Part shown: positions 5,211-20,840 of the stretch, one piece after another
How the letters are laid out: every line of letters begins with the position of its first letter
Position numbering within the stretch: position 1 is the first letter of the stretch
Source: an uncultured Actinomycetota bacterium
GTDB lineage: Bacteria; Actinomycetota; Actinomycetes; JAHEKZ01
Assembly (NCBI GenBank): GCA_963718235.1
Contig: CAVQYR010000001.1
Coordinates: 128,001-192,000, forward strand
Direction of reading: 5' to 3'
Length of the DNA stretch: 64,000 nucleotides
Made by a program: the position numbers and the translations under genes
Notes under the pieces: model-generated
What the model saw: only the letters and a program-made list of their open reading frames with translations
Database searches by the model: none
Told to the model about the DNA's origin: nothing

Positions 5211-6637
5211 AGGATCGAGCCAGGCACGTAGGTAGCCGCCTCCGGATGACGCTGCACCACCTCGTCGACCTGCTTCGCGATCGCGGCAACCTGTGCCGTC
5301 GCGGCACCGGTGAAGCTCAGCGGCTCAGCCAAGAGACCGTCGAGCTGGTCTCGCGTGAGACCGAGCCGCTGGTCGGCCGCCAGGCGGTCGAGCAGGTCGT
5401 TGCGCTCGCTCCCCTGCTCGCGCATCTCCAGTGCTACGGCCACGGCGTGCTCCTTGATCACCTCGTGCGCCGTCTCTCGTCCGACTCCGTTGCGCACCGC
5501 AGCCATCAGCACCTTGGTCGTCGCCAGGAACGGTAGGTACCGGTCGAGCTCGCGCCGCACGACCGCCGGGAACACCCCGAACTCGTCGAGCACGGTCAGG
5601 AACGTCTCGAACAGTCCGTCAACCGTGAAGAACGCGTCGGGCAGAGCCACCCGGCGGACGACTGAGCAGGCGACGTCACCCTCGTTCCACTGGTTTCCGG
5701 CGAGCTCTCCGACCATCGACGCATAGCCGCGCAGAAGCACGGTGAAGCCATTCACCCGCTCGCAGGAGCGGGTGTTCATCTTGTGCGGCATCGCGCTGGA
5801 GCCGACCTGACCGGGTGTGAAGCCCTCGGTGACGAGCTCGTTGCCGGCCATCAGCCGAATCGTCGTCGCCAGGGATGACGGTCCGGCCGCAACCTGCACC
5901 AACGCCGTCAGCACGTCGTAGTCGAGCGAACGTGGGTACACCTGCCCGACGCTGGTGAGCACGTGGGCGAACCCGAGGTGAGCGGCGATCCGCTGCTCGA
6001 GCTGGGCCAGCCGCTCTTCGTCTCCGTCGAGCAGGTCGAGCATGTCCTGTCCGGTGCCAACCGGACCCTTGATGCCCCGCGAGGGGTACCGGGCGATCAG
6101 CTCCTCCAGACGCTCGTAGGCAACCAGCAGCTCGTCAGCGGCGCTGGCGAACCGCTTGCCGAGGGTGGTGGCCTGGGCCGCGACGTTGTGCGAGCGCCCG
6201 GCCATGACCAGGTCTGAGTGCCCGACGGCCAGGCTCGCGAGGCGGGCCAGGGTAGCGACCACCTTGTCGCGCGTCATCCGCAGCGAGTGCAGCACCTGCA
6301 GCTGCTCGACGTTCTCGGTCAGGTCGCGGCTCGTCATCCCCTTGTGCACGTGCTCGTGGCCGGCAAGCTCGGAGAACTCCTCGATCCGCGCCTTCACGTC
6401 GTGCCGAGTGACGGCCTCCCGGCGGGCGACGGACTCCAGGTTGACGTCGTCGACAACGACCTCGTAGTCCTCGATCACCCCGTCCGGGATCGGAACGCCG
6501 AGGTCGCGCTGTGCCCGCAGCACCGCCAGCCAGAGCTGTCGCTCCAGAACCACCTTGCGTGCCGGCGACCACAGCGCTGTCATGGCGGCCGAGGCGTAGC
6601 GATGGGCCAGGACGTCGGGGATCAAGGGCTTGCTCAC
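5207..6637 (-). CDS. purB: adenylosuccinate lyase
   Basis: [30 protein letters not shown]; GTG 6637 after GGAGA. Confidence 0.95.
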
Positions 6638-6668
6638 CGTGGCATTCTCCCCTATCGCCAGGCGGCCG

Positions 6669-8084
6669 TCAGGTGCGGGCGAGAACCTCGCGAGCTGCGT
6701 GCCACCCACCCATGCCGTGCACACCGCCTCCCGGTGGGGTCGAGGACGAGCACAAGTACAGGCCGGGAACCGGGGTCACCCACGGCGACCGGGTCAGCAC
6801 CGGCCGAGCGATGAACTGCCGCCAGTCGGACGCGCCCCCGGCGATGTCCCCTCCGACCTCGTTGGCGTTGTGCGCCTCCAGGGCCGCGGTGTCCATGGTG
6901 TGGCGGGCCAGGATCCGGTCGCGGAAGCCAGGCGCGAACCGCTCGATCTGCGCCTCGATCCGGTCGGTCATGTCGACTCTCGAACCGTGCGGCACATGGC
7001 AGTACGCCCAGCCGGTGTGCTTGCCCTCGGGCGCCCGCGTCGGGTCCGCCCCCGTCGCCTGGACGAACAGCACGAACGGCCGTTCCGCATGCTTGCCCGC
7101 TGCCGCCAGCCGCTCGCTGGAGGCCACCTCGGCGGCCGTCCCGCAGACGTGGACGGTGCCAGCATCAGCCAGCCGCGAGTCGGTCCAGGGCACGGGGGCG
7201 TCGAGCGCCCAGTCGACCTTGAACACCCCGGGGCCGTAGCGGAAGCCGGCCAGCCGGTCGCGGTAGCGCGTCGGAAGAACGTCACCGGCGACGTCGACGA
7301 CCTGCCTGGGGGTCAGGTCCAAGACGATGCTGGACGACGGCGGCAGCTCACTCAGGGAGGCGACGCGACGGTCGGTCTCGATCTCACCGCCCAGGGAACG
7401 AAGTCTCGCGACGAGCGCATCGGCGATGCTCTGGGAGCCGCCGACAGCGACCGGCCAGCCGACCACGTGCGCCAGGGCGCCGAGAAGCAACCCGAACCCA
7501 GCCGTGGTGAGCGAGGTGAGCGACAGCATCGAGTGCGCGGCGAGGCCCGAGAACAGCGCGCGCGCCGGCGGCTCGCGAAACGCCACCTTGTCGACCCAAC
7601 CCGACGGCCAGGCACCCACCGCACCGTAGGCGGCAAGAGCCAGTGGAGCCTTGGGTGGGAACTCCAGCGGTGAGAGCAGCCCGTCGACCAGCGGTTCGCC
7701 GAGCCCGGCCACACCCCCGACGATGCGTCGCCACGCGGCGCCGTCGCGGCCAAGACCGGCTGCGGTCTCGGCTACATCGCGCCACAGGAGTGCGGTGGTC
7801 TGCTGGTCGACCGGGTGTCCGAGCGGAACACCCGGCTGGGCGAAGGCCAGGCCCTCGCGGGACAGGTCGAGCGTGCGAAACGCCGGAGAGGCCATAGCCA
7901 ACGGGTGCACCGAGGAACAGACGTCGTGGCGAAAGCCGGGGAGGGTCAGCTCCTCGGTACGGACCCCACCGCCGACCTGCGAGGCGGCCTCGAGCACCAG
8001 CACCCTCTGACCGGCCTCGGCCAGCCGGACGGCGGCCACCAGCCCGTTGGGACCGGAGCCGACCACGATGGTGTCCGGGTTCAT
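6669..8084 (-). CDS. phytoene desaturase-like FAD-dependent oxidoreductase
   Basis: VVGSGPNGLVAA, LPGFRHDVCS, GLYLCSSSTPPGGGVHGMGG. Confidence 0.88.
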   Translation of the reverse strand: MNPDTIVVGSGPNGLVAAVRLAEAGQRVLVLEAASQVGGGVRTEELTLPGFRHDVCSSVHPLAMASPAFRTLDLSREGLAFAQPGVPLGHPVDQQTTALLWRDVAETAAGLGRDGAAWRRIVGGVAGLGEPLVDGLLSPLEFPPKAPLALAAYGAVGAWPSGWVDKVAFREPPARALFSGLAAHSMLSLTSLTTAGFGLLLGALAHVVGWPVAVGGSQSIADALVARLRSLGGEIETDRRVASLSELPPSSSIVLDLTPRQVVDVAGDVLPTRYRDRLAGFRYGPGVFKVDWALDAPVPWTDSRLADAGTVHVCGTAAEVASSERLAAAGKHAERPFVLFVQATGADPTRAPEGKHTGWAYCHVPHGSRVDMTDRIEAQIERFAPGFRDRILARHTMDTAALEAHNANEVGGDIAGGASDWRQFIARPVLTRSPWVTPVPGLYLCSSSTPPGGGVHGMGGWHAAREVLART

Positions 8085-8133
8085 GCGCCCAGCCTGCCGG
8101 TCGGTCGCCCCCGCCTCGGCGCTGGGGGGTCAC

Positions 8134-9306
8134 TCATCGGGCACGCAGCCACAAGGAGGTGTGCTCGGGCACCACCGTCGTCTCGACCACCTGCAGCAAG
8201 TCCTTGGTCACGACGTCGGGATCGACCTCGTCGCGCAGCCGGCTCGCGAACGCGTCCACGGTGTGCTCGGCGTCGTAGCGGGCCCGGTTGAACCGGTGGT
8301 CGACGGCGGACCGCACCCGCGAGAGCAGCGGCCGGAAGAGCGCCGCTGCGCACAGTGTGGCTGCGGCAACCGCCAGGGCACCGGACTCAGGCAGCAGCTG
8401 CGGAACAGTCCAGACGACAACCACGTAGACCAGCAGAAGAATCCCCGTCACGAGCACGTAGGAGGTCGTACGACTGATGATCCGGTCGATCTCGTAGAGG
8501 CGGAAGCGCAGGATCGCCACACCGACCGCCGCAGGAAGCAGCGACAGCGCCACCGCCCAGCCCAACGTCCCCAGCAACGTCGTGTCGGCCAACCAAGGAA
8601 GGGTAAGCAGAACGAGCATGATGGCCAGGAGGGCCACCGCAAAGGCCACCCAGCGGAACTGCACCTTCTCCACTCCGCGTGCGCGGCGGGCCCTGACTAC
8701 CACCGACGTAGCGGCAAGGACGGCAGTGACCGCAACTCCCAGCAGTGCGAGGTTCCGCAGCAGCCAGTCATCGGACGGACCGGCATCGGCCAGGAATCCC
8801 GGCGCGAGCGGGTTGGCGACCGTCATCGCTGGGGTCTGGAACTGCAGCACCGGCGACACGATCCCGCAGAGGGCGGCGAAGCCGGCGAAGACCACAGTCG
8901 CCACTCCCACCCATCGCCAGCGAACGGAAGCGAAGCCAGAGGGGAACACCAGAAGCGGCAAGGTCGTGCTCATCACGAGCAGCAGCGGCCAGATCCAGTT
9001 GGTCATCCAGGCCCCCGTCCAGCCCCACCACGACGTCAGGTTGCCGGTCTCCACCGCCCGCGCGACGGCGAAGTCAGCGAGCCCGAACAGTCCGAACAGA
9101 CCCCAGGAGCCCAGGAAGAGCCAGCCCTCGGCGTTCTCCGGACGGCGAGTCGTGAGCAGCCACCCAACCGTCGCGAACGTCAGGTACGGCAACAGGTAGA
9201 GGAGCTGAGCACTCCACGGCTTGGCCAGTCCGAGGGCCACACCGAGCAACCCCACCACGATCAACACCCACCGCAGCGCGGTCAGCCAACGTTCGCTCAG
9301 CTTCAC
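8134..9306 (-). CDS. multi-TM sensor-like membrane protein, array copy 8 (last transcribed)
   Basis: RRPEN.EGW, FPSG...RWR, V.NP, GVEKVQFRW, AILRFRLYEIDRIISRT, VDHRFNRARYDA...RLRDEVD...SLWL; GTGA overlap with upstream copy. Confidence 0.85.
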   Translation of the reverse strand: MKLSERWLTALRWVLIVVGLLGVALGLAKPWSAQLLYLLPYLTFATVGWLLTTRRPENAEGWLFLGSWGLFGLFGLADFAVARAVETGNLTSWWGWTGAWMTNWIWPLLLVMSTTLPLLVFPSGFASVRWRWVGVATVVFAGFAALCGIVSPVLQFQTPAMTVANPLAPGFLADAGPSDDWLLRNLALLGVAVTAVLAATSVVVRARRARGVEKVQFRWVAFAVALLAIMLVLLTLPWLADTTLLGTLGWAVALSLLPAAVGVAILRFRLYEIDRIISRTTSYVLVTGILLLVYVVVVWTVPQLLPESGALAVAAATLCAAALFRPLLSRVRSAVDHRFNRARYDAEHTVDAFASRLRDEVDPDVVTKDLLQVVETTVVPEHTSLWLRAR

Positions 9307-10487
9307 GAAGGTCCCCCCAACCACAGGTAGGTCCGGTTCGGCGCGACTGTCCGATCGACGACCTGCAGCAACTCCGTGGACACCCGCTCCGGATCGACTT
9401 CGTCGCGCAGCCGGTTGGCGAACGTCTCCACCGCCCGGTCGGCGTCATAGCGCGACCGGTTGAACCGATGATCGACGGCAGACCTGACCCGGGAGAGCAG
9501 TGGTCGGAACGCCGCGGCCGCTGCCAGGGTGGCAGCCGCCACTGCGAGTCCGTCGCTGGCCGCAGGCAGTGCCTGACTCACGGCGGCCACCACGACCACG
9601 TACACGACCACGACCAGACCGGTCACGACCGCGTAGGACGTCGTGCGGCTGATGATCCGGTCGATCTCGTACAGCCGGTACCGAAGGATCGCGATGCCGC
9701 ACGAGACCGGAACCAGGGTGACTACGACCGCGAACGCCACGTCGCCGAGCCGCGAGTCGCTGAACGCCGGGAACAACGCCTCCAGCACAAGCTCTGCGGG
9801 CAGCAGCGAGACGGCGAAGGCGAACCAGCGCATCTGCTGACGCTCGATGCCGACGGCACGTCGGCTCCTCACGAAGGCCGAGACCACCGCCGCGAGCCCG
9901 CACAACAGGAACACCAGTCCGACCAGAGCGAACGCCGTCGAGCTCTCGACGTCGCCCGCGTCGGCCATGAAGCCTGGCGACCACGGGTTGGCTACCGTTC
10001 GCTCGGGGGTGCAGTCACCAGAGGTGTCCCCGAGGCACAGGGTGGGCTGGAGGATCGACATCACCACCACGCCGACGGTCGAGGCAACGGCCAGCCACAG
10101 CACCGGACGCCAGCGTGGAGAAGGAAGTCCGGACGGGTACAGCAGCACGGTGAACGTTGTCATGAGAGCGAGCAGCGGGTACCAGTACCAGGAAGCGACG
10201 CCCGCGCCGGCGATCGCCCACCCGGACGGCGACGAGTCGTCAACGCCGGTCGACGCTGCCACCTCTGCCATGGAGCCGAGGCCCGTGAGGCCGCCCACGC
10301 CGAGGAACACCCAGCCGATCGGGTTCTCCGGGCGACGGGATGCCACCACAGCTCCGACCACCGTGTACGCGAGAACGGGCAGGAGGACCGCCTGGTTGTT
10401 GGCCTCCAGGCCGGAGGCGAGTCTGAGACCCGTGCCCACAGCGAAACTGGCGAGGAGCGTCCACCACAGGATCCGGTGACGGTTCAT
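9303..10487 (-). CDS. multi-TM sensor-like membrane protein, array copy 7
   Basis: Same motif set (RRPENPIGW, YPSGLPSPRWRP, GIERQQMRW, ILRYRLYEID, RYDADRAVETFANRLRDEVD...YLWL); ATGA overlap. Confidence 0.87.
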   Translation of the reverse strand: MNRHRILWWTLLASFAVGTGLRLASGLEANNQAVLLPVLAYTVVGAVVASRRPENPIGWVFLGVGGLTGLGSMAEVAASTGVDDSSPSGWAIAGAGVASWYWYPLLALMTTFTVLLYPSGLPSPRWRPVLWLAVASTVGVVVMSILQPTLCLGDTSGDCTPERTVANPWSPGFMADAGDVESSTAFALVGLVFLLCGLAAVVSAFVRSRRAVGIERQQMRWFAFAVSLLPAELVLEALFPAFSDSRLGDVAFAVVVTLVPVSCGIAILRYRLYEIDRIISRTTSYAVVTGLVVVVYVVVVAAVSQALPAASDGLAVAAATLAAAAAFRPLLSRVRSAVDHRFNRSRYDADRAVETFANRLRDEVDPERVSTELLQVVDRTVAPNRTYLWLGGPS

Positions 10488-11620
10488 GACCCGTCCCCTG
10501 GAAGCCACAGCCCGAGAACTGAGGGAGCAACCGTACGACGGATGACAGCGTGGAGGTCGACGTACACCTGGTCGGAGTCGACCTCGTCGCGCAGCCGGAC
10601 CGCGAACTCCTCGACCGCCCGCTCGGCGTCGTAGCGCGACCGGTCGAACCTGCGGTCCACCACCGACCGCACCCGAGACAACAACGGACGGAACAGCGCA
10701 GCCGCCGCCAACGTCGCCGCCGCTACCGCAAGATCGTTGGCCTCCGGCAGCAGCTGAGGTACTGCCCAGACCACCGAGACGTACACCACCAGAAGCAGCC
10801 CGGTCACCAACGCGTACGACGTCGTCCGACTGATGATCCGGTCGATCTCGTACAGGCGGTACCTGAGGACAGCGAATCCGATGGCCAGCGGTACCAGCGC
10901 GTAGGCCCCGATCGTCAGGGCCTGCAGGCCAACGGTCAGGGGCGAGTCACCAAAGGCGAGTGAGGTGACAAGGGTCACCCCCCACGTCGACACGAAGACC
11001 GCACCAGCCCACGCGATCCAGCGGATCTGCACCCGCTCTGACGAGCCGGCATGGCGGTAGCGGACGAACACCGAGTAGGCGCTGACCCCGAAGGCGACCG
11101 GGAGAGTCAACAGCACCAGGGGCGCGACTCGGGTCAGCAGAACCGAGTACGTCGGGTTGTTCACCCCCGAGGCCAGCGTCGGCTCCGACCCGGCCACCAC
11201 GAGCGAGGCAACAGCGATCAGCGCGAGGCTGCCCCACGAGAACCACCGCCACCCAGGTGACGGCAACCGACCGTCGGGGAAACGCAGCAGCACCTGGGTG
11301 CCCATGATGCCGAGTGGGGGCACCCAGAACGGCCACCACAGCAACCACCCGACGAGGGCGCCTGTCTCGCCACGGTCGACGAGGAACTGCCCCAAGGCGT
11401 AGGGGACGGCGGGGATGGACCAGAGCATGGCCACGGACAGCAGGATCCAGCCCATGACGTTGTCGGGGCGCCGTAGCGCAAGTACGCCACCAACGGCGGT
11501 GAAGCTGCCGAGCACCGCAATCGAGAACAGGACGTCCGAAGGCCCCGTGGCAAGGAGCATTCCCAGGAGCATCACCGATCCGCCGATCGTGATCATCACC
11601 CAGACTGCGACTCGCCTCAT
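10484..11620 (-). CDS. multi-TM sensor-like membrane protein, array copy 6
   Basis: RRPDNVMGW, FPDGRLPSPGWR, ERVQIRW, LRYRLYEID, RYDAERAVEEFAVRLRDEVD...GLWL. Confidence 0.87.
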   Translation of the reverse strand: MRRVAVWVMITIGGSVMLLGMLLATGPSDVLFSIAVLGSFTAVGGVLALRRPDNVMGWILLSVAMLWSIPAVPYALGQFLVDRGETGALVGWLLWWPFWVPPLGIMGTQVLLRFPDGRLPSPGWRWFSWGSLALIAVASLVVAGSEPTLASGVNNPTYSVLLTRVAPLVLLTLPVAFGVSAYSVFVRYRHAGSSERVQIRWIAWAGAVFVSTWGVTLVTSLAFGDSPLTVGLQALTIGAYALVPLAIGFAVLRYRLYEIDRIISRTTSYALVTGLLLVVYVSVVWAVPQLLPEANDLAVAAATLAAAALFRPLLSRVRSVVDRRFDRSRYDAERAVEEFAVRLRDEVDSDQVYVDLHAVIRRTVAPSVLGLWLPGDGS

Positions 11621-12771
11621 GGGGACCGCGCAATCAGTGAGACACCGGCCACCGTCGGCTGCACCGTGCGGTCGAGCAGAGACAGGAGGTCCTCGCTGAT
11701 CTCACCGCTGTCGACCTCGTCGCGCAGCCGGACCGCGAACTCCTCGACCGCCCGGTCGGCGTCGTAGCGCGACCGGTCGAACCGACGGTCCACCACCCCT
11801 TGCACCCGAGACAGCAACGGACGGAACAAGGCGGCCGCAGCCAACGTCGCTGCAGCCACGGCAAGGTCGTTAGCCTGCGGCAGCAGCTGAGGCACCGCCC
11901 AGACCACCGACACATAGACGACCAGGAGCAGCCCGGTCACCAACGCGTAGGACGTCGTCCGACTGAGGATCCGGTCGATGTCATACAGGTGGAACCGGGT
12001 GATAGCCACCCCTGCGGCGAGCGGAACCGCCGCGAGCGCCGTCCCGTAGAGAAGGTTGGAGACGGCAGCGAGGTCGGTGTACTCGGCGGTCAGGCCGCCA
12101 AGTACCCATCCGAGCACCAGCGCGGGAGCGGCTAGGATCATCCACTTCAGCTGCTGGCGCACCACCCCCTCCGAGCGGCGGAACCTGGCGACGAAGGCAG
12201 CGAGCGCGGTGAGCCCGGCCGCGAGGAGGAACAGCAGGATCGGGCTCTCGCCAGAGCCAGTGGTCAGTCCAAGTGCGGCCACGCCGATGGGGTTTCTCAC
12301 CACGAGTCCCTCGTTCCCGGCCTGGACCTCCGACGCCAGGGCGATCCGACTCGTTGCGGCAACCAGGCCGACCACGACCAGGAACAGCGCCGGTCGCCAT
12401 CCGGGTGACGGCGCACGCCCGGTGGGGAAGATCATCAAGATGACGATGGGGAGCCCGATCGCGGGCACGAAGTACCAGTCGGAGTACCACGACATCAGAC
12501 CCAGCCACGGAGTGGTGGGATCGACGATCTGCTCGGCGTGGTCGCTGATCACCGTGCCTGACGTCCAAAGCAGTCCAACCGCCGAGAACAACCAGCCCAT
12601 GACGTTGCCGGGGCGACGCAGGACCAAGAAGGCACCGACGAGGTACCACGGAGTCACACTGACGAACACGATGTCGGTTCCCGCACCGTTCAGGATGACG
12701 AGCAGGGTCATCGCGAGTCCGAAGACAGCGATGGCTGCACCGCCGACACGCCCGACGAGCCTCGACGTCAT
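11617..12771 (-). CDS. multi-TM sensor-like membrane protein, array copy 5
   Basis: RRPGNVMGW, FPTGRAPSPGWRP, RQQLKW, FHLYDID, RYDADRAVEEFAVRLRDEVD; ATG 12771 overlaps upstream stop. Confidence 0.87.
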   Translation of the reverse strand: MTSRLVGRVGGAAIAVFGLAMTLLVILNGAGTDIVFVSVTPWYLVGAFLVLRRPGNVMGWLFSAVGLLWTSGTVISDHAEQIVDPTTPWLGLMSWYSDWYFVPAIGLPIVILMIFPTGRAPSPGWRPALFLVVVGLVAATSRIALASEVQAGNEGLVVRNPIGVAALGLTTGSGESPILLFLLAAGLTALAAFVARFRRSEGVVRQQLKWMILAAPALVLGWVLGGLTAEYTDLAAVSNLLYGTALAAVPLAAGVAITRFHLYDIDRILSRTTSYALVTGLLLVVYVSVVWAVPQLLPQANDLAVAAATLAAAALFRPLLSRVQGVVDRRFDRSRYDADRAVEEFAVRLRDEVDSGEISEDLLSLLDRTVQPTVAGVSLIARSP

Positions 12772-13970
12772 GATCTGCCCCCTCCGGCCAGCCACAGCCC
12801 GGAGCGGGCAGGCTGAACCGTCCGGTGCAACACGTCGAGCAGGTCGTCGCTCACCTCGCTGGGGTCCACCTCGTGAAGCAGCCGGGCTGCGAACCCCTCG
12901 ACCGCCCGGCTGGCGTCGAACTGCTCGCGGTTGAACCGACGGTTGACCAGCCGCTGCGCCCAACCCAGGACGGGTCGGAACACGGTAGCCGCGGCCAGGG
13001 TCGCTGCTGCAACCTGCAAGGCGTTGGACCTCGGCAGCGGGATCGACACCGCGTACACGACCGCGAGGTACACCGCGACAAGGGCCACGGTCACCAGCAG
13101 GTACGCAGTGGTGCGACCGATGATCCGGTCGATGTCGTACAGGTGGTACCGCAGGATCGCCACACCGCAGGAGATGGGGATCAGCAACATGATCAGGATG
13201 AACGTGAAGTCACCCAGAACCGAGTCGACCCACCCGGTGACGAGACCCCCCAGCATGATGTGCAGGGGAACCAGGAGGATCACGAAGGCGAACAGCCGCA
13301 TCTGCAGGCGCTCCACACCGGTGGACCGCCACGTGCGCAGCACGACTGACCAGACCCCCGCAAGTCCGCAGAAGAGCAACAGCAGAACGCCCGCAGGCGC
13401 GGCCCACGACTGGGAGGCGGCTATCGCATCGGATACGACGGGTGGTGAAAGCGGGTTGGCCACGGTCCACGCGTTCGGGTCCTCACCCGGAAGCCCGATG
13501 TCGAGCGTGGGATAGAGCGCGACCAGGACCGTCGCCCCCACCGTGGCGCCGGCAGACAGCCGCAGTACCCACCGCCACCGGTTCGAGGCAACCCCCGTCG
13601 GGTAGAGCAGGAAGGTGAACGTGGTCGCCAGCATCAGGAGTGGGAGCCAGGCCCAGCTGTAGATCCAGGCGCTTGCCACCCCCCACCAGGGCGCAGGGGG
13701 ACCGGCCTCCAGAACCCTCTCCAGGACAGCGCCTGTGGCACCCACAAGCGCGAGCAGCGCCGCGATCTGCATGAAGACCCAGCCGATCGCATTCTCCGGA
13801 CGTCGCCGGGTCACGACCGCCCCGACCGCGGCGTACACGAGGACAGTGACCGGCTCCAGGACGTCGTCGGCGGTGTACTGCTGGTGGGCGAACAGGCTGA
13901 CGGCGCACCCGAGGATCGCCACGAGCACCATCGGCCACCAGCTCAGGCGCAGAGCAGATTGGCGCCTCAT
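12768..13970 (-). CDS. multi-TM sensor-like membrane protein, array copy 4
   Basis: RRPENAIGW, YPTG..S.RWR, GVERLQMRLF, ILRYHLYDID, NRRFNREQFDA...GLWL. Confidence 0.87.
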   Translation of the reverse strand: MRRQSALRLSWWPMVLVAILGCAVSLFAHQQYTADDVLEPVTVLVYAAVGAVVTRRRPENAIGWVFMQIAALLALVGATGAVLERVLEAGPPAPWWGVASAWIYSWAWLPLLMLATTFTFLLYPTGVASNRWRWVLRLSAGATVGATVLVALYPTLDIGLPGEDPNAWTVANPLSPPVVSDAIAASQSWAAPAGVLLLLFCGLAGVWSVVLRTWRSTGVERLQMRLFAFVILLVPLHIMLGGLVTGWVDSVLGDFTFILIMLLIPISCGVAILRYHLYDIDRIIGRTTAYLLVTVALVAVYLAVVYAVSIPLPRSNALQVAAATLAAATVFRPVLGWAQRLVNRRFNREQFDASRAVEGFAARLLHEVDPSEVSDDLLDVLHRTVQPARSGLWLAGGGRS

Positions 13971-15166
13971 CGCTTCGGCTCGTTCAGCCAGAGGCCAGCC
14001 GCCGAGGGTTGGACCGTTCGAGCCAGCACGCCCAGCAGGTCACTGGACACGGCACTCGAGTCGACCTCGTCGCGCAGTCGGGACGCGAACTGCTCCAGCG
14101 CGACCTCGGCGTCGAAGCGTTCCCGGTTGAACCGGCGGTCCACCACCCGTCGGGCCCAGTGCAGCACCGGGCGGAAGGCTGCGGCCGCGACCAGGGTCGC
14201 GACCGCCACCTGCAGGGCGTTGGACCGCGGCAGCGGGATCGACACCGCAGCGACCACGAGGAGGTACAGGCCGACCAAGGCACCGGAGACCAGCAGGTAC
14301 GCGGTGGTGCGCCCGATGATCCGATCGATGTCATAGAGGTGATAGCGAAGAACCGCGACGCCGCAGGCGACCGGAATGCACGTCAGTGCAATCGTGAAAG
14401 TGAGGTTGCCGAGCTGGGAGTTGCCGAAACCGGAGAACGTCTCCGAGACCAGGATCTGTAGCGGAACCAGCACGATCGCCGCCGCGAAGAGCCGCATCTG
14501 CAGTCGCTCCACGCCCCGCGCTCGCCAGGTGCGCCAGACCACGGATCCAACAGCGGCGACACCACAGAGCAGCCCCACGAGAACCGGGGCGAGAAACCAG
14601 CCCGACTCGTTGTCCCCATCGCTTATGCCGGCGAGGAACCACGAAGACAGCGGGTTGGCGATCGTGATGGGCGTCTCGGAGTCCGTGATCCATTGCAGGT
14701 CGAGCGTGGGGTCCAGCATTCCGAACAGGGTGGCTGTCACCGTTCCTGCGACCGAGAGCCACAGCACGGGACGCCAACGCGGTGAGGGAAGCCCGTTCGG
14801 GAACAGCAAGAAGGTGAAGGTGGTGGAGAGCATGAACAGCGGGTACCAGAACCAGTTGCCATACCAGGCTGCCAGCACGCCCCACCACGGAACCGGTGGT
14901 CCGGCCTCCAGCACCGCCTGGGTCCCCACATCGCTGAGACCAGTGAGACTGGCCAGCAGACCGACGAGCAGGAACAGCCATCCGATGGGGTTCGTGGGGC
15001 GTTGCCTCGCGACTACGGCTCCGACCAGCGCGTAGCCAAGAAAGGCCACCATCACGAGGTCGTCGACCTGGTAGTCCCGGATGAACGGCAGGCTCACCAC
15101 CAGACTCCCGACCGTCGCGACCACGAGAGCCCACCACCAGCCGCGCTGGACGCTTCGGGTGCTCAT
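13967..15166 (-). CDS. multi-TM sensor-like membrane protein, array copy 3
   Basis: RPTNPIGW, FPNGLPSPRWRP, GVERLQMRLF, LRYHLYDID, RLRDEVD...RTVQPSAAGLWL; ATG 15166 overlap. Confidence 0.87.
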   Translation of the reverse strand: MSTRSVQRGWWWALVVATVGSLVVSLPFIRDYQVDDLVMVAFLGYALVGAVVARQRPTNPIGWLFLLVGLLASLTGLSDVGTQAVLEAGPPVPWWGVLAAWYGNWFWYPLFMLSTTFTFLLFPNGLPSPRWRPVLWLSVAGTVTATLFGMLDPTLDLQWITDSETPITIANPLSSWFLAGISDGDNESGWFLAPVLVGLLCGVAAVGSVVWRTWRARGVERLQMRLFAAAIVLVPLQILVSETFSGFGNSQLGNLTFTIALTCIPVACGVAVLRYHLYDIDRIIGRTTAYLLVSGALVGLYLLVVAAVSIPLPRSNALQVAVATLVAAAAFRPVLHWARRVVDRRFNRERFDAEVALEQFASRLRDEVDSSAVSSDLLGVLARTVQPSAAGLWLNEPKR

Positions 15167-16344
15167 GACCGGCTCTCCCGGAGCCACAGGCCCGCCACCG
15201 CGGGCTGGACGGTGCGATCGAGCACGGTGAGCAGGTCACCGCGGATCTCGTCACTGTCGACCTCGTCCCTGAGCCGACCGGCGAACCTCTCCACCGAACG
15301 CTCCGCGTCGTACTGCTCGCGGTTGAACCGACGGTTCACCAGGCGCTGCGCCCAGCCCAGCACCGGCCGGAACAGCGCCGCCGCCGCCAACGTCGCCGCT
15401 GCAACGGCCAGGTCGTTGGACTGCGGGAGCAGCTGGGTCACCGCGGTCACCACCACGGCGTAGACGGCGAGCAGCACCCCTGAGACCAACCCGTACGCAG
15501 TGGTCCGGCCGATGACCCGATCGATGTCGTACAGGTTGTGCCGCAAGATGGCGACCGCGCAGGCGAGCGGGACACACAGGAACGCCGCGGCGAGAACGAC
15601 GTACCGCAGCGTCGAGTACCCATGCTCGGCGAGCCACTGCGCCGGCACGATCGAGAGGATGAGCATCAGGATCGCGAAAGCGAACAGGCGCATCTGCAAC
15701 CGCTCCACGCCCTTCGAGCGCCAAGCACGCTGCAAGGACGAGAAGGCCGACAGCAGCATCAGGACGAAGAGCAGACCCACCCAGAACAGGAAGGAGTTGT
15801 CCAACCCGGCGAAGGTAGGGGATACACCCAGCGGGTTCTGCACGTCGAAAGCGTTCGCACTCCCCTCCTCACCTATCGGGAGTGTTGGGCTCAACGCCGA
15901 GAAGAGCGGACTCAGTGCAATGAGCCCAGCCCCCAGGTACAGCACTGGCCGCCAGCGTGGGGAAGAGAGCCCCGACGGGTAGAGGAGGAACGTGAAGGCG
16001 GTCGAGAGAATGATCAGCGGAAAGGCGACCCCGGCAAGGACCCAGGCCGCGAGATACCCCCACCACTGGAGGGGCGGGCCCTCGACCAGGGCGGCCTGCT
16101 CGCCCACTCGCGCGAGCGCCGTCAGACTCGCGGCCAGCCCTACCCAGAGGAAGAGCCAGCCGATCGGGTTGTCCGGCCGGCGGCGGGCGATCACGGCTCC
16201 GACGGGGGCGTAGGCGATCCACACCGCGAACAGCAGGTCCTCCCCGAAGTAGCCCCGCTTCAGGACCAGCGTGAGCACGACACTCGCACCGATCAGGGTG
16301 ACGAACACCCACCAGCAGGCCGTCTGGAGCTCTCGAAGACTCAC
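15163..16344 (-). CDS. multi-TM sensor-like membrane protein, array copy 2
   Basis: RRPDNPIGW, YPSGLSSPRWRP, GVERLQMRLF, LYDIDRVIGRT, RLRDEVD...RTVQPAVAGLWL; GTG 16344 overlap. Confidence 0.87.
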   Translation of the reverse strand: MSLRELQTACWWVFVTLIGASVVLTLVLKRGYFGEDLLFAVWIAYAPVGAVIARRRPDNPIGWLFLWVGLAASLTALARVGEQAALVEGPPLQWWGYLAAWVLAGVAFPLIILSTAFTFLLYPSGLSSPRWRPVLYLGAGLIALSPLFSALSPTLPIGEEGSANAFDVQNPLGVSPTFAGLDNSFLFWVGLLFVLMLLSAFSSLQRAWRSKGVERLQMRLFAFAILMLILSIVPAQWLAEHGYSTLRYVVLAAAFLCVPLACAVAILRHNLYDIDRVIGRTTAYGLVSGVLLAVYAVVVTAVTQLLPQSNDLAVAAATLAAAALFRPVLGWAQRLVNRRFNREQYDAERSVERFAGRLRDEVDSDEIRGDLLTVLDRTVQPAVAGLWLRESRS

Positions 16345-17474
16345 GGGGCCGGCTCCCGGAGCCACAGACCGGCCGACGCGGGCTGCACGGTGCGGGTCAG
16401 CGCACTCAGGAGCTCCCCCGACACCAGGCTGGGGTCGACCTCGTGCCGCAGTCGCCCGGCGAACTCGTCGACGGTCACCAACGCGTCGTACCGCTCACGG
16501 TTGAACCGTCGGTCGACCACGCGCTGCACGCGCCGCAGGACCGGCCGGAACAGCGCCGCCACCGCCAGCGTCGACGCTGCGACGGCGAGGTCGGAGGACT
16601 CCGGGAGCAGGCTCGAGGCGGCGGCCACCAGCACGGCGTAGACGGCCAGCAGCCCGACGGTCACCAGGCCGTAGGAGATGGTCCGGCTGACCACCCGGTC
16701 GAACTCGTACAGCCGGTAGCGGGTCACCGCGACGCCTATGGCCACCGGCACGGCGTTCAGACCGATCGCAGTCGCTATCGCGTAGACAAGCTCCGGCACG
16801 TCCAAGGCGTTGAACAGCGTGCTGGTGACCAGCAGCGCCACGATCGCAACGCCGACCGCAAGGGCGAACCACCGGTACTGCAGCCGCTCGCTGCCGCGGC
16901 TGCGGCGCCACCGCGCCACCAGGCTCGTCAGGGCGCCCAGCATCAGCAGCGGGACGATCACGAAGCCCTGGTCGTTGAACCACCCGACGACCCCACTCAA
17001 CGCAGGAACGCCGAGTGGGTTGGGCTGTTGGCTGATCTGCAGCGGGAGGGGGTCCACGAGCCCGGCGACGACGACACAGCCGGCTGCGACCGCGGTGGCC
17101 CCGATCAGCAGTCGGGTTCCTGGTGTCTCGGCCCTTCCGGTCGGGAAGAGCACGACGGTCGCGATCAGGGTGACGTAGCCGAGGCGACCCGCCAGCACCA
17201 CCACCAGCTCGAGCCAGACCGACATCTCGCCGACCAGCCCGTACCCCACGAGCAGGATCGCCCAGCACGCCCCGGTGGCCATGAGCAGCCAGCCGATCGC
17301 ATGACCCGGACGCTGCCAGAGGATCAGCGCGCCCACCAACGGGAACCCGATCCAGCTCAGCCCCCACGCGACCCAGAAGGCGTTGCTCGCTGCTGCCCCG
17401 ACCAACAGCCCGATGACAATCGACGCCGTGACGACGGCGAGCGCCGAGCGGCGCAGGACCTCTCGTGTCGGCAC
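16341..17474 (-). CDS. multi-TM sensor-like membrane protein, array copy 1 (first transcribed)
   Basis: QRPGHAIGW, FPTGR, GSERLQYRW, TRYRLYEFDRVVSRT, RLRHEVD...RTVQPASAGLWL; start GTG 17474 inferred. Confidence 0.83.
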   Translation of the reverse strand: MPTREVLRRSALAVVTASIVIGLLVGAAASNAFWVAWGLSWIGFPLVGALILWQRPGHAIGWLLMATGACWAILLVGYGLVGEMSVWLELVVVLAGRLGYVTLIATVVLFPTGRAETPGTRLLIGATAVAAGCVVVAGLVDPLPLQISQQPNPLGVPALSGVVGWFNDQGFVIVPLLMLGALTSLVARWRRSRGSERLQYRWFALAVGVAIVALLVTSTLFNALDVPELVYAIATAIGLNAVPVAIGVAVTRYRLYEFDRVVSRTISYGLVTVGLLAVYAVLVAAASSLLPESSDLAVAASTLAVAALFRPVLRRVQRVVDRRFNRERYDALVTVDEFAGRLRHEVDPSLVSGELLSALTRTVQPASAGLWLREPAP

Positions 17475-17485
17475 GGGGGAGCGAA

Positions 17486-18253
17486 CTACCGAGCAGCCCG
17501 ATGAGGTCGCAGCATCCGCAGGGGAGCGGTGAGGATGTGCAGCCCCGAGCGGATCCCGGAGTTGTGCCAGATGTTGCGCCAGTTCGACCACAGCCGCTTG
17601 TGGTCGACGCAGACCGTCTCCTCGGCGACCTCGACGTCCGGGATGCCGTAGTGCGCCGCGAGGTTGTGCAACGTGCCCATCCAGAAGACGTCTTCCTTGC
17701 GCTTGGCCACCGGCCAGGCCATCTCCCACAGCGGGTCGTTGGGACGGATCAGGATCTTGATCTCGACCCGGGTGCGTTCGTCACGCTCCTCGGCAGAGAA
17801 CGTGATCATGCCCGCGAACATGTGGCCCTCAGGGGTCATGAAGGTGAACGACTCGTCGTCGGCGTAGAGGACCAGGATCCCCGTAGCCAGCTTGGGGCCA
17901 TGACTTGCTATGCCGACTTCGATGGGCGCGACGTCGCCCGGTTCGATTCCGGTGAGCGTGTTGTGGAACACACTGCCCGGCGGCCAGTAGTCGCCGAAGT
18001 TGACCTTCCAGTCACTCACGAGTGCACGCGCGCCCACGACATTCCCGAGATCGGCCGAGTAGGTGCGCTGCCACAGGCGACCGAACCCCTGCTGGGGACC
18101 TGTCACCTTCTTGCCCGTGATGTTGTAGCCGACCGAAGCCTTCTCGTCCGGTGCGGCCAACCGGTCGACCTTGGTCGCCCAGTTGCCGGCGTCGCGCGGG
18201 ACGACGGGTTCGCTGCTGGGGGCTGGAGTGGTCATGTCGGTCTCCTCGCTCAC
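17486..18253 (-). CDS. hypothetical soluble protein, possibly DUF1990/SRPBCC-like
   Basis: Globular-looking Trp-rich sequence; FTFMTPEGHMFAGMITF recalls the DUF1990 GH motif; GTGA-coupled to STAS gene. Confidence 0.6.
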   Translation of the reverse strand: MSEETDMTTPAPSSEPVVPRDAGNWATKVDRLAAPDEKASVGYNITGKKVTGPQQGFGRLWQRTYSADLGNVVGARALVSDWKVNFGDYWPPGSVFHNTLTGIEPGDVAPIEVGIASHGPKLATGILVLYADDESFTFMTPEGHMFAGMITFSAEERDERTRVEIKILIRPNDPLWEMAWPVAKRKEDVFWMGTLHNLAAHYGIPDVEVAEETVCVDHKRLWSNWRNIWHNSGIRSGLHILTAPLRMLRPHRAAR

Positions 18254-18600
18254 GCCGATGCCAAGGCTGCAGCGGCATCAGGATGAAGGGCGATCGCCTC
18301 ATCGAGGCGGGTCAGCTCGAAGATCTGCCGGTAGTGGTCGGTGAGCCCGACAGCGGCCAGCTTCTGCTGCTGCCGGTTGGCCCGTACGAGCAGCGTGACG
18401 AGCATGCCGATGCCACCACTGTTCATGTAGGTCAGGCCGGTGAAGTCCAGCACGATGAACCTCGTGCCGGGGGCGCATGCCTCCTCGTAGGCCGACATCA
18501 GCACCGGCTCACAGGCTGCGGTGACATCGCCCGCAATCTCGATGACTGCCGTCCCGTCGACCGGGTGGTGGACCGTCATGGTTACGTCCGGATCAGGCAT
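18250..18600 (-). CDS. STAS-domain anti-sigma factor antagonist
   Basis: 116 aa; IEIAGDV, IVLDFTGLTYMNSGGIGML, IFELTRL. Confidence 0.92.
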   Translation of the reverse strand: MPDPDVTMTVHHPVDGTAVIEIAGDVTAACEPVLMSAYEEACAPGTRFIVLDFTGLTYMNSGGIGMLVTLLVRANRQQQKLAAVGLTDHYRQIFELTRLDEAIALHPDAAAALASA

Positions 18601-18618
18601 GGTGTTCCCTTTCGCCGA

Positions 18619-18969
18619 TCATGCGGTCGCGGAGCCGACAGCGGCGTCCACGTCGGAGAAAACCTGGATGAAGTCCGACAGTCGGGTGATGTCGAAGACG
18701 TGTCGGTAGTGCTCGGTGAGACCGGCGGCATGCACCGCGCGACGGTCGGCGCGGGCTCGCCCCAGCAGACTCACGATCAGGGCGATTCCGGTTGAGTTGA
18801 TGTAGTCGACGGCGTTGAAGTCGAGGACGACCGTGGTCGGATCGCTCGCGACGGCAGCGTCATAGGAGCTCGCCAGAGCGGTTGCGGCTTCACGGTCGAC
18901 CTGTCCGGTCAACACGATCACGACCGTCGACGATGCTGGGTAGGCCGCTACCTCGTAGCCGGTGATCAT
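18619..18969 (-). CDS. STAS-domain anti-sigma factor antagonist
   Basis: 116 aa; LTGQVD, VVLDFNAVDYINSTGIALI, VFDITRL. Confidence 0.92.
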   Translation of the reverse strand: MITGYEVAAYPASSTVVIVLTGQVDREAATALASSYDAAVASDPTTVVLDFNAVDYINSTGIALIVSLLGRARADRRAVHAAGLTEHYRHVFDITRLSDFIQVFSDVDAAVGSATA

Positions 18970-20750
18970 GACGTGCCTCCGTCTGTCTGTGCGGGATCGA
19001 CCTCAGTGGGATCGACCTGAGTGGGATCGACGTTCAGGACGAGCCGGACGGTGTGTCGCTCGTCCTTGGTGTGCTCCTCGAGCACGTCGACCATGTTCTC
19101 GATCAGGAACAGCCCCCACCCGCGCGGCGTCTGCAGGCCGGCCAGCTTCAGCTCGAGGTCGGGCAGGTCGGCGACGGCGTCCTCGCGCCGCCCCCCGAGG
19201 TCACTGATCTCGACCGCGACGCCGGTCTGGGTGCGCATCACGGCAACATCGACCGGCAGCTCGGGACGGTTGTGGTTGCCGTGCTCGATCGCATTCATCG
19301 CCGCCTCGGCCGAGGCCGTCTTGATCCGCTCCAGGGCGTCTGCGTCGAGTCCGCACCCGGCCACCGCCTCTGCGACCTGGGCCAGCACCTGACGCTCGTT
19401 GCCGGGCTCGCTGGGGACCGAGAACGTCGCCAGGATCTCCTCACCCGGGGGTGCCTTGGGCCGGGCTGCGGAGCTTCGCTCCAAGGTGACGATCGTGACG
19501 TCGTCCTCTTGCTCGTTCTTGCCGGAGAACTGCTCCAGCGCGGTCACACACGCGTCGACGAGCTGCGAGCCGCTCGTGGCCGACGCAACCAGGTCGCGCG
19601 TGCGATGGAAGCCGAACATCTCGCCCTCGTCGTCGTGCTGCTCGGTGATGCCGTCGCTGTAGAGGAGCAGCACCTCACCCGGGTCGATCACGTCCTCCAG
19701 CTCGTCATAGCGGCTCTCGGGCATCAGCCCGAGCGGCATGCCGGTGGCTCGCAGCTCACGGACCTCACCGGAGCCGCGCAGGAAGGGAAGGTTGTGACCG
19801 GCGTTGGCGAACACGACGGCGCCGGTCTCGAGGTCGACGACGAGCACGAGGCAGGTGACGAACATGTGGGCCGGGATGTCGGTGCACAGCAGCTCGTTCA
19901 CCCGCTCGAGCACGGCAGCCGGCGAGACCAGCCGTGGCCCCGCCTCACGGAGCAGGGCGTGGGTGCTCGCCATCACCAGTGCGGCGGGGACTCCCTTGTC
20001 GGTGACATCGCCGGTGACCACCATGATCCGGCCGTCGGGAAGCTCCATCACGTCGTAGAAGTCGCCACCGACCGTCCGGGCGGGCAGGTAGAAGGCGGAC
20101 AGGTCCCACCCGGCCAGGTTGGGCAGCGAGCTGGGCAGGAACTGCTGCTGGATCAGCTGAGCGACCTTGAGCTCCTGCTCGATCCGCTCCCTGCTGCGCG
20201 CCTCGGCCTCCTGCTGGCGGACCAGCTGACCCAGGCGCAGCGCTGGGGCGGCGTACCGGGCCAGGGTGTCGAGCAGCCGCCGGTCGTCGTGGGAGTAGCC
20301 GCGTTCGGACAGTCGCGCACCCAGCGCCAGCAGCCCGACCATCTCACCCGATGCCACGAGCGGGACCACGAGCTCGACGCCGGCCTCGCGCATCTCGATG
20401 ACTGCGGGTGAGTCTGCGGGAAGGGTGTCGACGTCGACCGGCCCGGTGGCACCCTGCAGGAAGGCGAGCACGGGGTCGTTGGGTGCGATGTCGAGCTCGA
20501 CCCGGGAGGTGCCCGAGGGTGCAGGGTCGCCTTGCGAGCCGCCCTCGGGCGGGCGCCCCTTGCGACGCCACGACCGTCGCGAGCCGGCAGACCCCCGTAC
20601 CGCCGGCTCACTCGTCGTCGGGGCGACCGCACGGTCCGGCCCAGACGCTGGTTCGGTCGCAGCGGGGGCTTCGAGCTCGATCGGACGGACCACAACGCCT
20701 CCCGGTGCTGCAGGCCCCGGAGTGTCCGGGGGCTTTCTGGGATCCAGCAT
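18966..20750 (-). CDS. partial GAF + SpoIIE/PP2C phosphatase + RsbW-like HATPase fusion
   Basis: LVVPL..GEMVGLLALG..YS.DDRRLL (GAF C-part); VGGDFYD, GDVTDKGVPAAL, NAGH, YSDGITE, EDDVT (PP2C); EAAMNAIEHGN, ISDLG, RGWGLFLI (HATPase_c). Confidence 0.92.
   Translation of the reverse strand: MLDPRKPPDTPGPAAPGGVVVRPIELEAPAATEPASGPDRAVAPTTSEPAVRGSAGSRRSWRRKGRPPEGGSQGDPAPSGTSRVELDIAPNDPVLAFLQGATGPVDVDTLPADSPAVIEMREAGVELVVPLVASGEMVGLLALGARLSERGYSHDDRRLLDTLARYAAPALRLGQLVRQQEAEARSRERIEQELKVAQLIQQQFLPSSLPNLAGWDLSAFYLPARTVGGDFYDVMELPDGRIMVVTGDVTDKGVPAALVMASTHALLREAGPRLVSPAAVLERVNELLCTDIPAHMFVTCLVLVVDLETGAVVFANAGHNLPFLRGSGEVRELRATGMPLGLMPESRYDELEDVIDPGEVLLLYSDGITEQHDDEGEMFGFHRTRDLVASATSGSQLVDACVTALEQFSGKNEQEDDVTIVTLERSSAARPKAPPGEEILATFSVPSEPGNERQVLAQVAEAVAGCGLDADALERIKTASAEAAMNAIEHGNHNRPELPVDVAVMRTQTGVAVEISDLGGRREDAVADLPDLELKLAGLQTPRGWGLFLIENMVDVLEEHTKDERHTVRLVLNVDPTQVDPTEVDPAQTDGGTS
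18991..19031. repeat. 3 x 15-bp tandem repeat encoding VDPTQ-VDPTE-VDPAQ
   Basis: g[ct]gggatcgacct.a units in the 3' end of the phosphatase gene. Confidence 0.75.
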
Positions 20751-20840
20751 CTCGGGCTCCGCGTTCCGGGAACGTTACGAGGACGGCGTATTGCCGATGA
20801 TCTGGGACGTTAGCGGCCGGAAGGGCGTTACGGTGCCGAC

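Follow-up and report, generated by a model that had tools for sequence, protein, structure and literature searches.

How can eight membrane receptors without an output domain of their own be connected to a single soluble enzyme whose sensor domain is incomplete? As a rule, a bacterial receptor is covalently linked to its output or communicates with it through folded docking domains. The question is raised by a locus in a stretch of 64,000 nucleotides (nt) from an uncultured Actinomycetota bacterium (assembly GCA_963718235.1, contig CAVQYR010000001.1, positions 128,001 to 192,000 of the forward strand), referred to here as the window; its G+C content is 66-73% and the source genome measures 3.17 Mb in two contigs. 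Positions 8134-20750 of the window hold a cluster of twelve genes on the minus strand, which encode a PP2C (SpoIIE)-HATPase protein, two STAS proteins, a DUF1990-type protein and eight paralogous membrane proteins (R1 to R8). We conclude that the cluster is probably a partner-switching module in which sensor and enzyme have been separated by gene fission inside a GAF domain, and in which the receptors plug into the enzyme by fold completion.

The phosphatase-kinase contains an incomplete GAF domain

The enzyme and its domains are located as follows.

18966..20750, minus strand: soluble bifunctional enzyme of 594 amino acids (Pfam SpoIIE, HATPase_c_2 and partial GAF); in order, a disordered basic N-terminus, the half-GAF, a helical linker, PP2C (SpoIIE) and an RsbW-like HATPase_c_2 kinase
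20217..20513, minus strand: half-GAF, residues ~80-178 (Pfam GAF_2, BLASTP to the fused relative P0030, AlphaFold2, complex model), with a beta2-like SRVELDIA, alpha2, beta3, alpha4, the VPL/GLL hairpin and alpha5, lacking alpha1 and beta1
19476..20039, minus strand: PP2C/SpoIIE catalytic domain, residues 238-425 (PF07228, AlphaFold2, Foldseek)
19038..19418, minus strand: HATPase_c_2 anti-sigma-factor-type serine kinase domain, residues 445-571 (PF13581)

The PP2C domain matches PF07228 with E=1.2e-49 over profile positions 1-191 of 192. It is modelled by AlphaFold2 (AF2) with a predicted local distance difference test (pLDDT) of 90-98, and in Foldseek it matches the PP2C domain of SiaA (6k4e) with E 3e-16 and a TM-score of 0.84 on the target; RssB and the RsbU+RsbW parts of Rv1364c (3ke6) are also among the fold matches of the enzyme. 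The kinase domain (PF13581, E=1.3e-20, profile positions 1-126 of 127) has weak NCBIfam matches to RsbA/SpoIIAB/RsbW. A search with the phosphatase returned 1320 database proteins at E<=1e-5; its own version in the protein database, P0119, has 575 amino acids.

Concerning the N-terminal region, the three GAF profiles PF01590, PF13185 and PF13492 cover only profile positions 80-133, 86-135 and 84-127, respectively. These matches fall on residues 118-171 (GAF_2, profile 86-135, on 121-171), and the scores of GAF_2 (30.1 bits) and GAF_3 (29.9 bits) are just over the cut-off. The conserved block ahead of the linker is ~95 residues long, ~35 of them preceding the part aligned by Pfam. Conservation among 13 orthologues begins sharply at L.LDIAPNDP; the first ~85 residues are of low complexity and poorly conserved, apart from a basic patch. 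No membrane helix was found in the protein: its two hydrophobic windows, 123-145 and 286-318, correspond to the GAF hairpin and to core strands of PP2C. When residues 77-440 are modelled alone, PP2C and a 50-residue helix are confident, whereas the GAF part is strandless and pLDDT falls below 50 over residues 128-152. The first-pass annotation of this DNA, made from its letters and open reading frames, had described a phosphatase without membrane segments, with a low-complexity N-terminus and less than a complete GAF domain, and all three points hold, the GAF profiles together covering positions 80-136 only.

An arginine-rich patch (here SRRSWRRKGR) lies 20-40 residues before the conserved block in every soluble half-GAF phosphatase that we inspected. 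The patch, which lies within residues 1-79 (20514-20750), makes no confident contact in the complex model described below.

Eight receptors share one endpoint

The receptor genes follow one another on the same strand (evidence: alignment, with additions where given).

16341..17474, minus strand: R1, 377 amino acids, start GTG 17474; tail 16344-16550
15163..16344, minus strand: R2, 393 amino acids; tail 15166-15372 (also AF2 model)
13967..15166, minus strand: R3, 399 amino acids; tail 13970-14176
12768..13970, minus strand: R4, 400 amino acids; tail 12771-12980
11617..12771, minus strand: R5, 384 amino acids; tail 11620-11826, ending ...GVSL, not LWL
10484..11620, minus strand: R6, 378 amino acids; tail 10487-10693 (also BLASTP to fused P0030)
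9303..10487, minus strand: R7, 394 amino acids; tail 9306-9509
8134..9306, minus strand: R8, 390 amino acids; tail 8137-8337

The length of the receptors varies from 377 to 400 amino acids, and R2-R8 are each 35-40% identical to R1, for which the alignment holds five extra N-terminal residues. All eight stop 3-6 residues past a common ...TV.P....LWL block, the identical endpoint that the first-pass annotation had pointed out. Its statement that they lack a catalytic domain also holds for the five receptors scanned, in which neither Pfam nor NCBIfam reports a catalytic family. The same five have no Pfam match to STAS or to HisKA_7TM (PF16927; 0/5), while 11 of 116 members of the receptor family match HisKA_7TM at E<=0.01 (best E=1.5e-8); the fused relatives P0024 and P0030 score 19.6 and 22.1 bits against this profile, under the cut-off of 28.6.

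Kyte-Doolittle plots give 7-9 hydrophobic windows per receptor. The AF2 model of R2, built with 116 aligned relatives (pLDDT 88.5), contains ten long membrane helices, an outside hairpin at 154-169 and two tail helices, 342-360 and 364-378 (pLDDT 77-86); the final 15 residues are coil in the receptor modelled alone, and the last 10-residue block has pLDDT 66. From the positions of conserved basic motifs we infer that the N- and C-termini are both cytoplasmic. Foldseek found no solved relative of the fold in the PDB at E<=0.001. VIA-align superposes the receptor on 7TM receptors and rhodopsins with Z 9-11.6 and a root-mean-square deviation of 4-5 A over ~205-228 residues; these scores fall below the caution line of ~13 for helical bundles, and hence no claim on the fold is made.

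The eight paralogues differ in conservation along their length: mean identity is 31% in transmembrane helices (TM) 1-8, 67% in TM9-10 and 59% in the tail. A variable TM1-8 next to a constant TM9-10 and tail is as expected if all receptors dock on one partner. Near the C-terminus, P57 of the tail is conserved in 100% and W63 in 97% of 116 receptors. Two further output-less paralogues with the same ending are encoded elsewhere in the same genome (G000), amid unrelated housekeeping-type genes (C1:237109-238320, minus strand, and C2:872356-873600, plus strand); under the proposed model they would work in trans on the single phosphatase.

Fused relatives hold both parts in one chain

Longer relatives of the C-terminal third of the receptor comprise tandem-duplicated receptors, HisKA_3 histidine kinases of ~665 amino acids and SpoIIE phosphatases of ~820-860 amino acids. 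In the latter, the membrane module and RRF.R.RYDA...LWL are followed by ...DP...VPL..GE.IG.L.LG.R.SE..Y..DD..LL and then by PP2C. BLASTP on one of them, P0030 (823 amino acids), aligns residues 177-373 of R6 with 248-445 (32% identity over 201 residues) and residues 88-429 of the window phosphatase with 474-817 (47% over 344 residues), without overlap. On the same protein the Pfam GAF profile, positions 1-130, covers residues 420-554, that is, tail and remainder together, the first 26 residues being the tail homologue. In P0099, GAF_2 is matched over profile positions 1-136 (34.4 bits, cut-off 28.6) on residues 438-585; residue 438 aligns to about residue 361 of R2, in the second helix of the tail, and the alignment of the tail reaches residue 456. 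The homology between tail and GAF runs via these two proteins, there being no direct Pfam GAF match on the five receptors scanned. A phmmer search of PDB sequences with P0030 returned PP2C chains only and no GAF chain.

In the closer fused forms P0321, P0353 and P0315 the hidden Markov model (HMM) of the tail stops 6-13 residues ahead of the half-GAF block (the P0321 junction reads ...GLWLLEPELAKGLSPNDP...), a gap that places the cut of the gene in the beta1/beta2 hairpin. By these alignments the receptor is assigned the linker helix, alpha1 and beta1 (the first ~30 GAF positions), and the enzyme beta2 through alpha5. The earlier expectations that the membrane module would be found fused to GAF with kinase or phosphatase outputs, that the tails would be homologous to GAF and that receptor and phosphatase would tile on fused homologues without overlap are all in agreement with these proteins. 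The tail had been read as alpha1-alpha2-beta1; its place at the start of GAF stands, and its composition is revised to linker helix, alpha1 and beta1, with the split in the beta1/beta2 hairpin.

Looking at the half-GAF block in its 150 best representatives from a library of 1.84 billion proteins, it is N-terminal without a tail in 97, preceded by a tail in the same chain in 22 (two of these calls rest on weak tail matches, P0351 with E=27 and P0311 with 8.7e-4) and part of giant multi-GAF proteins in 8; the other 23 are fragments. A second, weaker half-GAF match is seen in frames of 855-1109 amino acids in G067, G100, G129, G223, G225, G288, G303 and G314, and fused and split forms seem to coexist within one genome.

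A predicted complex of tail and phosphatase

In a canonical GAF domain, beta1 lies antiparallel to the last strand and alpha1 is packed against alpha5. We modelled residues 50-200 of the phosphatase together with the 69-residue tail of R2. The interaction prediction score from aligned errors (ipSAE) is 0.62, 0.63 and 0.64 in the runs, compared with 0.00 for the best of three controls, so that the interaction put forward by the first-pass annotation is found as a prediction; 58 of 80 solved complexes and 2 of 110 mismatched pairs attain the mark applied to this score. The partner has pLDDT 68-70 and the runs share at least 90% of contacts. For the enzyme chain itself, pLDDT rises from 55-57 next to unrelated partners to 72-73 next to the tail.

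The contacts of lowest error follow an antiparallel register (i+j constant) between phosphatase residues 138-146, the last GAF strand, and tail residues 57-64 (..AGLWL). Helix 152-178 of the phosphatase contacts tail residues 20-52, and phosphatase residues 80-90 and 138-148 also touch the tail. The model thus predicts the geometry of a GAF domain made of two chains, with beta1 beside the last strand and alpha1 on alpha5.

Distribution across bacterial lineages

Within the family, the receptor profile matches all 19 genomes searched, with as many as 16 matches in a single genome, almost all of them frames of ~400 amino acids. A full-length phosphatase orthologue (61-80% identity) is present in 12 of the 19, and partial matches in G011, G004 and G007 (66-77% identity) are likely contig-end cuts; as for the other four, two genomes are 69% and 73% complete and two are also without receptor arrays. 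G025 and G033 gave only generic PP2C matches in this search. Loci taken from these relatives preserve the order PP2C-STAS-STAS-DUF1990-receptors, the receptors numbering 2-13.

A wider set of 80 half-GAF phosphatase loci comes from a scan at one genome per species, and by their titles the loci belong to Actinomycetes, Thermoleophilia, Acidimicrobiia, Rubrobacter, Chloroflexota, Dormibacterota and others. Sixty-three of them hold one to nine same-strand receptors that end in the tail within the flank, upstream only in 43, downstream only in 18 and on both sides in two. Two STAS genes are found in 78 and a DUF1990 gene in 73 of the 80. In the 63 loci, 245 of 249 tails end no more than 31 residues past the tail profile, most within 1-5, and the remaining four read on for 189-427 residues. 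The shared endpoint is far beyond chance, since the tails of so many loci in other organisms end alike. The phosphatase's own N-terminus was considered as the source of alpha1-beta1 and rejected: the region is unconserved, and the tail HMM matches 0 of 80 phosphatase frames.

Across the phylum, an even sample of 301 genomes has the half-GAF block in 50 and a receptor match in 95, all 50 lying within the 95, in keeping with the co-occurrence of output-less receptors and half-GAF phosphatases that had been anticipated. Five of the half-GAF genomes score weakly for the receptor, and in four of these a receptor is directly beside the phosphatase. Unpublished genomes among the 50 are G067, G097, G131, G137, G169, G223 and G288; G197 and G275 among the receptor-only genomes are also unpublished, as are G025 and G033, and publication needs the permission of the depositors.

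Some loci depart from the common form. At G058:C13, G131:C196 and G173:C213, all of one family, the phosphatase has as its neighbour a receptor with a shorter membrane module and an unchanged tail, which is matched by the profile at positions 186-392 only. L009 (G012:C13:209000-217664) is a partial cluster at a contig end, with a STAS2-like gene, a DUF1990-like gene and four receptors; G012 also holds a complete cluster on another contig. The contigs of L022 contain fragmented receptor frames, and P0005 (1410 amino acids) appears to join two receptors and a phosphatase through out-of-frame stretches; both look like assembly or gene-calling errors, not biology.

Organisation of the cluster and neighbouring genes

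Three soluble proteins are encoded between enzyme and receptors.

18619..18969, minus strand: STAS protein 1, 116 amino acids, anti-sigma antagonist type, NSTG at residue 58 (Pfam STAS E=1.3e-13)
18250..18600, minus strand: STAS protein 2, 116 amino acids, NSGG at residue 60 (Pfam STAS E=1.1e-13)
17486..18253, minus strand: DUF1990-type protein, 255 amino acids, conserved cluster member (Pfam DUF1990 E=0.0016, sub-threshold)

The two STAS proteins are 39-40% identical to each other, match PF01740 with E about 1e-13 and both have the D/N-S-x-G serine loop, whose serine we take, by analogy, to be the phospho-site. The ESM Atlas clusters nearest to the 255-amino-acid protein bear the name DUF1990 (score 0.97-0.98).

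The gene order is that of the first-pass annotation, with eight tandem output-less paralogues on the same strand downstream of the PP2C-HATPase gene, two STAS genes and one hypothetical gene. The ATGA/GTGA joins that it reported between the paralogues are exact, all seven receptor-receptor junctions being 4-nt overlaps (ATGA in five, GTGA in two). R1 itself does not overlap the gene before it; its start is most likely GTG 17474, 11 nt past the TAG stop of the DUF1990-type gene. Overlaps of 4 nt are also found at PP2C to STAS1 (ATGA) and STAS2 to the DUF1990-type gene (GTGA). A scan of 6500-21500 gave no promoter-like and two terminator-like sites, fewer than in shuffles. None of 22 sequencing runs listed is recorded as RNA, which speaks neither for nor against expression.

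An FAD-dependent oxidoreductase gene (NAD_binding_8/Amino_oxidase; 6669-8084, minus strand) begins 49 nt downstream of the last receptor. In P0019 (876 amino acids, another contig) a homologous oxidoreductase seems to be joined to a receptor, and this adjacency may recur. Directly upstream of the operon lies a divergent gene for a 920-amino-acid BTAD-AAA_16-TPR (AfsR/SARP-like) regulator (20841-23603, plus strand). Purine genes surround the region (AIR-synthase-related/FGAR-AT, adenylosuccinate lyase, GAR synthetase). The AT skew of the plus strand is 0.25-0.35 over the receptor array (within 7000-17000) and ~0 over the soluble genes, presumably reflecting the codon composition of hydrophobic proteins encoded on the minus strand.

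Proposed mechanism

Of the four components of an RsbU/V/W-type partner switch, the cluster contains three, namely a phosphatase, candidate STAS substrates and an anti-sigma-type kinase; the fourth would be a sigma factor or other target. In the proposed sequence of events, fission of the gene in the beta1/beta2 hairpin of GAF would have split a one-chain sensor-enzyme. The tail of a receptor would then dock on the enzyme and supply the missing helix alpha1 and central strand beta1, beta1 pairing antiparallel with the last GAF strand and alpha1 packing on alpha5. Docking would bring the enzyme to the membrane and fold its N-domain, and the completed GAF would order alpha5, which is continuous with the long helical linker, and so set the activity of the phosphatase. 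PP2C would dephosphorylate the two phospho-STAS proteins and the fused RsbW-like kinase domain would phosphorylate them again; STAS1 and STAS2 are likely substrates of both domains. Many diversified receptors with one conserved transmitter end (TM9-10 and tail) would in this way serve one output.

In the PPM phosphatases described in passages of PMC12143880, N-terminal sensor domains act on the phosphatase dimer via crossing helical linkers, and it is from this mechanism that we take the proposed ordering of alpha5 and linker and the proposed control of the phosphatase by a completed GAF. The linker route of activation, the many-to-one integration and the role of STAS as substrate are inferred.

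Evaluation of the model and alternative explanations

Several points weigh against receptors that complete the GAF domain of the enzyme. The alignments behind the complex model are shallow (33 rows for each chain), and the model of the phosphatase alone was built from 31 sequences. The predictor has learnt the GAF fold, so that a split domain can pass; the pass may therefore stem from the model's memory of GAF folds, showing fit and compatibility, not affinity, and binding of tail to enzyme remains a prediction. Interface positions of the tail have lower entropy than its other positions (1.67 vs 2.06 bits, one-sided p=0.04), a slight conservation that any buried face would show and that is not independent of burial. 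R5 is the only one of the eight paralogues without the terminal-strand tryptophan (...AGVSL vs ...GLWL). No adjacent receptor is present in 17 of the 80 loci, several of them cut by contig ends, and a whole-genome search for 10 of these 17 found receptors of ~400 amino acids elsewhere in all 10. In the phylum sample, 45 genomes have receptors but no half-GAF, and the closer examination covered 17 of them. Sixteen of the 17 have long frames only (full-length matches of at least 672 amino acids, bar one frame of 491 and one contig-end frame of 441), which, where read, are HisKA_3 kinases with a complete small GAF. In the seventeenth, G262 (230 contigs, completeness 98%), small contigs carry four to five output-less receptors and no half-GAF was detected at E<=1e-12; a congener has the enzyme. 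The 50 half-GAF genomes represent about eight families and are not independent, and the counts are accordingly descriptive and do not amount to a statistical test. Lastly, no sigma factor or other target gene was found in the cluster, and the genome was not searched for a target.

Three other explanations were considered. Completion of GAF could be real and the membrane proteins not sensors of signals but anchors, scaffolds or competing sinks that only govern the site and amount of available phosphatase, the number of paralogues tuning dosage or localisation. The receptors indeed have no recognisable ligand-binding domain, their sole sizeable outside element is a hairpin loop of ~30 residues, the five scanned are without Pfam/NCBIfam match, and neither the Foldseek search nor the sub-caution VIA-align scores provide a solved relative. 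However, hundreds of fused proteins have the same membrane module ahead of a GAF-histidine kinase or GAF-PP2C output, 11 of 116 family members match HisKA_7TM (best E=1.5e-8), and TM1-8 diversify (31% identity) while the transmitter end is conserved, the pattern of a sensor family; arrays of up to 9-13 paralogues would also be hard to explain by anchoring alone. We regard this explanation as unlikely. Equally unlikely, in our view, is that the tail is autonomous, as a dimerising helix or amphipathic segment that completes no GAF, and that the genes are co-transcribed because their products act on a common process or in one pathway, by way of contacts of STAS, the DUF1990 protein or the basic N-terminus, with the short phosphatase N-domain working alone or swapped in a homodimer. 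The model of the receptor alone gives the two tail helices fair confidence (pLDDT 77-86), the complex may reflect GAF-fold memory, and the conserved basic patch of the soluble forms could be a separate device for binding membrane or receptor. Yet the endpoint falls precisely within a hairpin, in a domain that fused relatives hold uninterrupted, the most conserved residues belong to the terminal strand P....LW, a partnerless coil in the receptor model, the half-GAF is unfolded alone in its model, and output-less receptors occur almost only where the half-GAF enzyme exists.

The last explanation is artefact or decay: each stop after LWL would come from a frameshift introduced by sequencing or assembly, or the genes would be remnants of fused genes that have broken. 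The first-pass annotation had argued against a sequencing frameshift, and we give the explanation as a whole hardly any weight. Fragmented receptor frames do occur in some related contigs (L022), and P0005 resembles a read-through; on the other side, the endpoint is kept by 245 of the 249 tails from 63 independent loci, the window has seven precise overlaps, the reading frame of the phosphatase opens just 8 codons before its ATG (602 vs 594 amino acids), and the frames are intact and conserved across phyla. Gene fission inside GAF with plug-in receptors is the explanation that we prefer.

Comparison with known systems

The closest relatives of the module are the fused phosphatases P0020, P0024 and P0030 (annotated as 'SpoIIE family protein phosphatase', Chloroflexota/Anaerolineales), P0321 and P0353, which have in common with it the end of the membrane module (LRYRLY.ID, TM9-10), RRF.R.RYDA...LWL, the half-GAF block, the linker and PP2C. 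Unlike these one-chain forms with a continuous GAF, the gene in the window is cut in the hairpin. Amplification has brought its receptor half to 8+2 copies; on the enzyme side a disordered basic N-terminus has been added and an RsbW-like kinase forms the C-terminal part. Two STAS genes and a DUF1990 gene accompany them. A multi-helix module directly before GAF or a small GAF-like domain is also found in HisKA_7TM/PrsK-type kinases (PF16927; TIGR02916) and in the HisKA_3 proteins P0022 and P0088. Those proteins are single chains with histidine kinase output, whereas the window receptors reach no Pfam threshold.

In the stressosome, the sensors terminate in STAS and signalling to RsbU passes through the kinase RsbT; its RsbR paralogues combine variable sensor parts with a conserved docking part and serve one phosphatase. 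The window receptors have no STAS match and the cluster has no separate RsbT-like gene, RsbR/RsbS scaffold or four-helix RsbU N-domain, in contrast to RsbT-RsbU and the stressosome. In RsbT-RsbU of Bacillus subtilis the partner binds the N-terminal region of the phosphatase and acts via a helical linker on the PPM dimer, according to passages of PMC12143880. The proposed output, dephosphorylation of STAS proteins, is the same, but the contact that we propose completes a fold and does not bring together two domains already folded, and the window sensors are integral membrane proteins. Rv1364c of Mycobacterium tuberculosis (3ke6; Foldseek E=1.7e-15, 28% over 234 columns) likewise fuses PP2C to an RsbW-type HATPase in the presence of STAS; its order PAS-RsbU-RsbW-RsbV, in passages of the same source (PMC12143880), includes a complete N-terminal PAS sensor and a fused STAS domain. 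In the window, by contrast, the sensor domain is an incomplete GAF, STAS is separate and membrane receptors are encoded alongside.

Completion of an unfinished fold by another polypeptide is familiar from donor-strand complementation in chaperone-usher pili, from split inteins and from split PH domains, which, unlike the module described here, serve fibre assembly, protein splicing and eukaryotic scaffolding. We know of no fold complementation that couples a bacterial receptor to a signalling enzyme, and of none with a GAF domain. The module resembles RsbT-RsbU and the RsbR paralogues in function and donor-strand complementation in physical principle, and is a member of neither. Its parts are known, namely the HisKA_7TM-like module, GAF, PP2C, the RsbW-type kinase, STAS and the fused architecture. 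We did not find described a GAF domain divided between receptor and enzyme in combination with amplification of the receptor half; in open-access full text, abstracts and passages of PMC11109136 and PMC12143880, neither this cluster nor a split or half GAF was described.

Implications

The cluster may represent a widespread and so far undescribed mode of signalling in which up to 13 or more interchangeable receptors compete for, fold and switch one phosphatase-kinase, a suggestion that we advance tentatively, at somewhat less than an even chance. With the same reserve, the signal transmitted could lie in the act of docking or in the geometry that the completed domain adopts. The model would account for two large families, membrane proteins without an output and phosphatases with a truncated GAF, and it offers a testable structural mechanism for many-to-one integration, with natural strand-and-helix complementation in signalling. 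Culturable carriers exist, several loci coming from named Kribbella strains, and the tail of ~45 residues could become a tool for coupling receptors to outputs. If the model is true, domain fission followed by fold complementation would be a natural route from a one-sensor enzyme to a many-sensor hub, and the short tail would be a portable tag by which new receptors are wired to an output.

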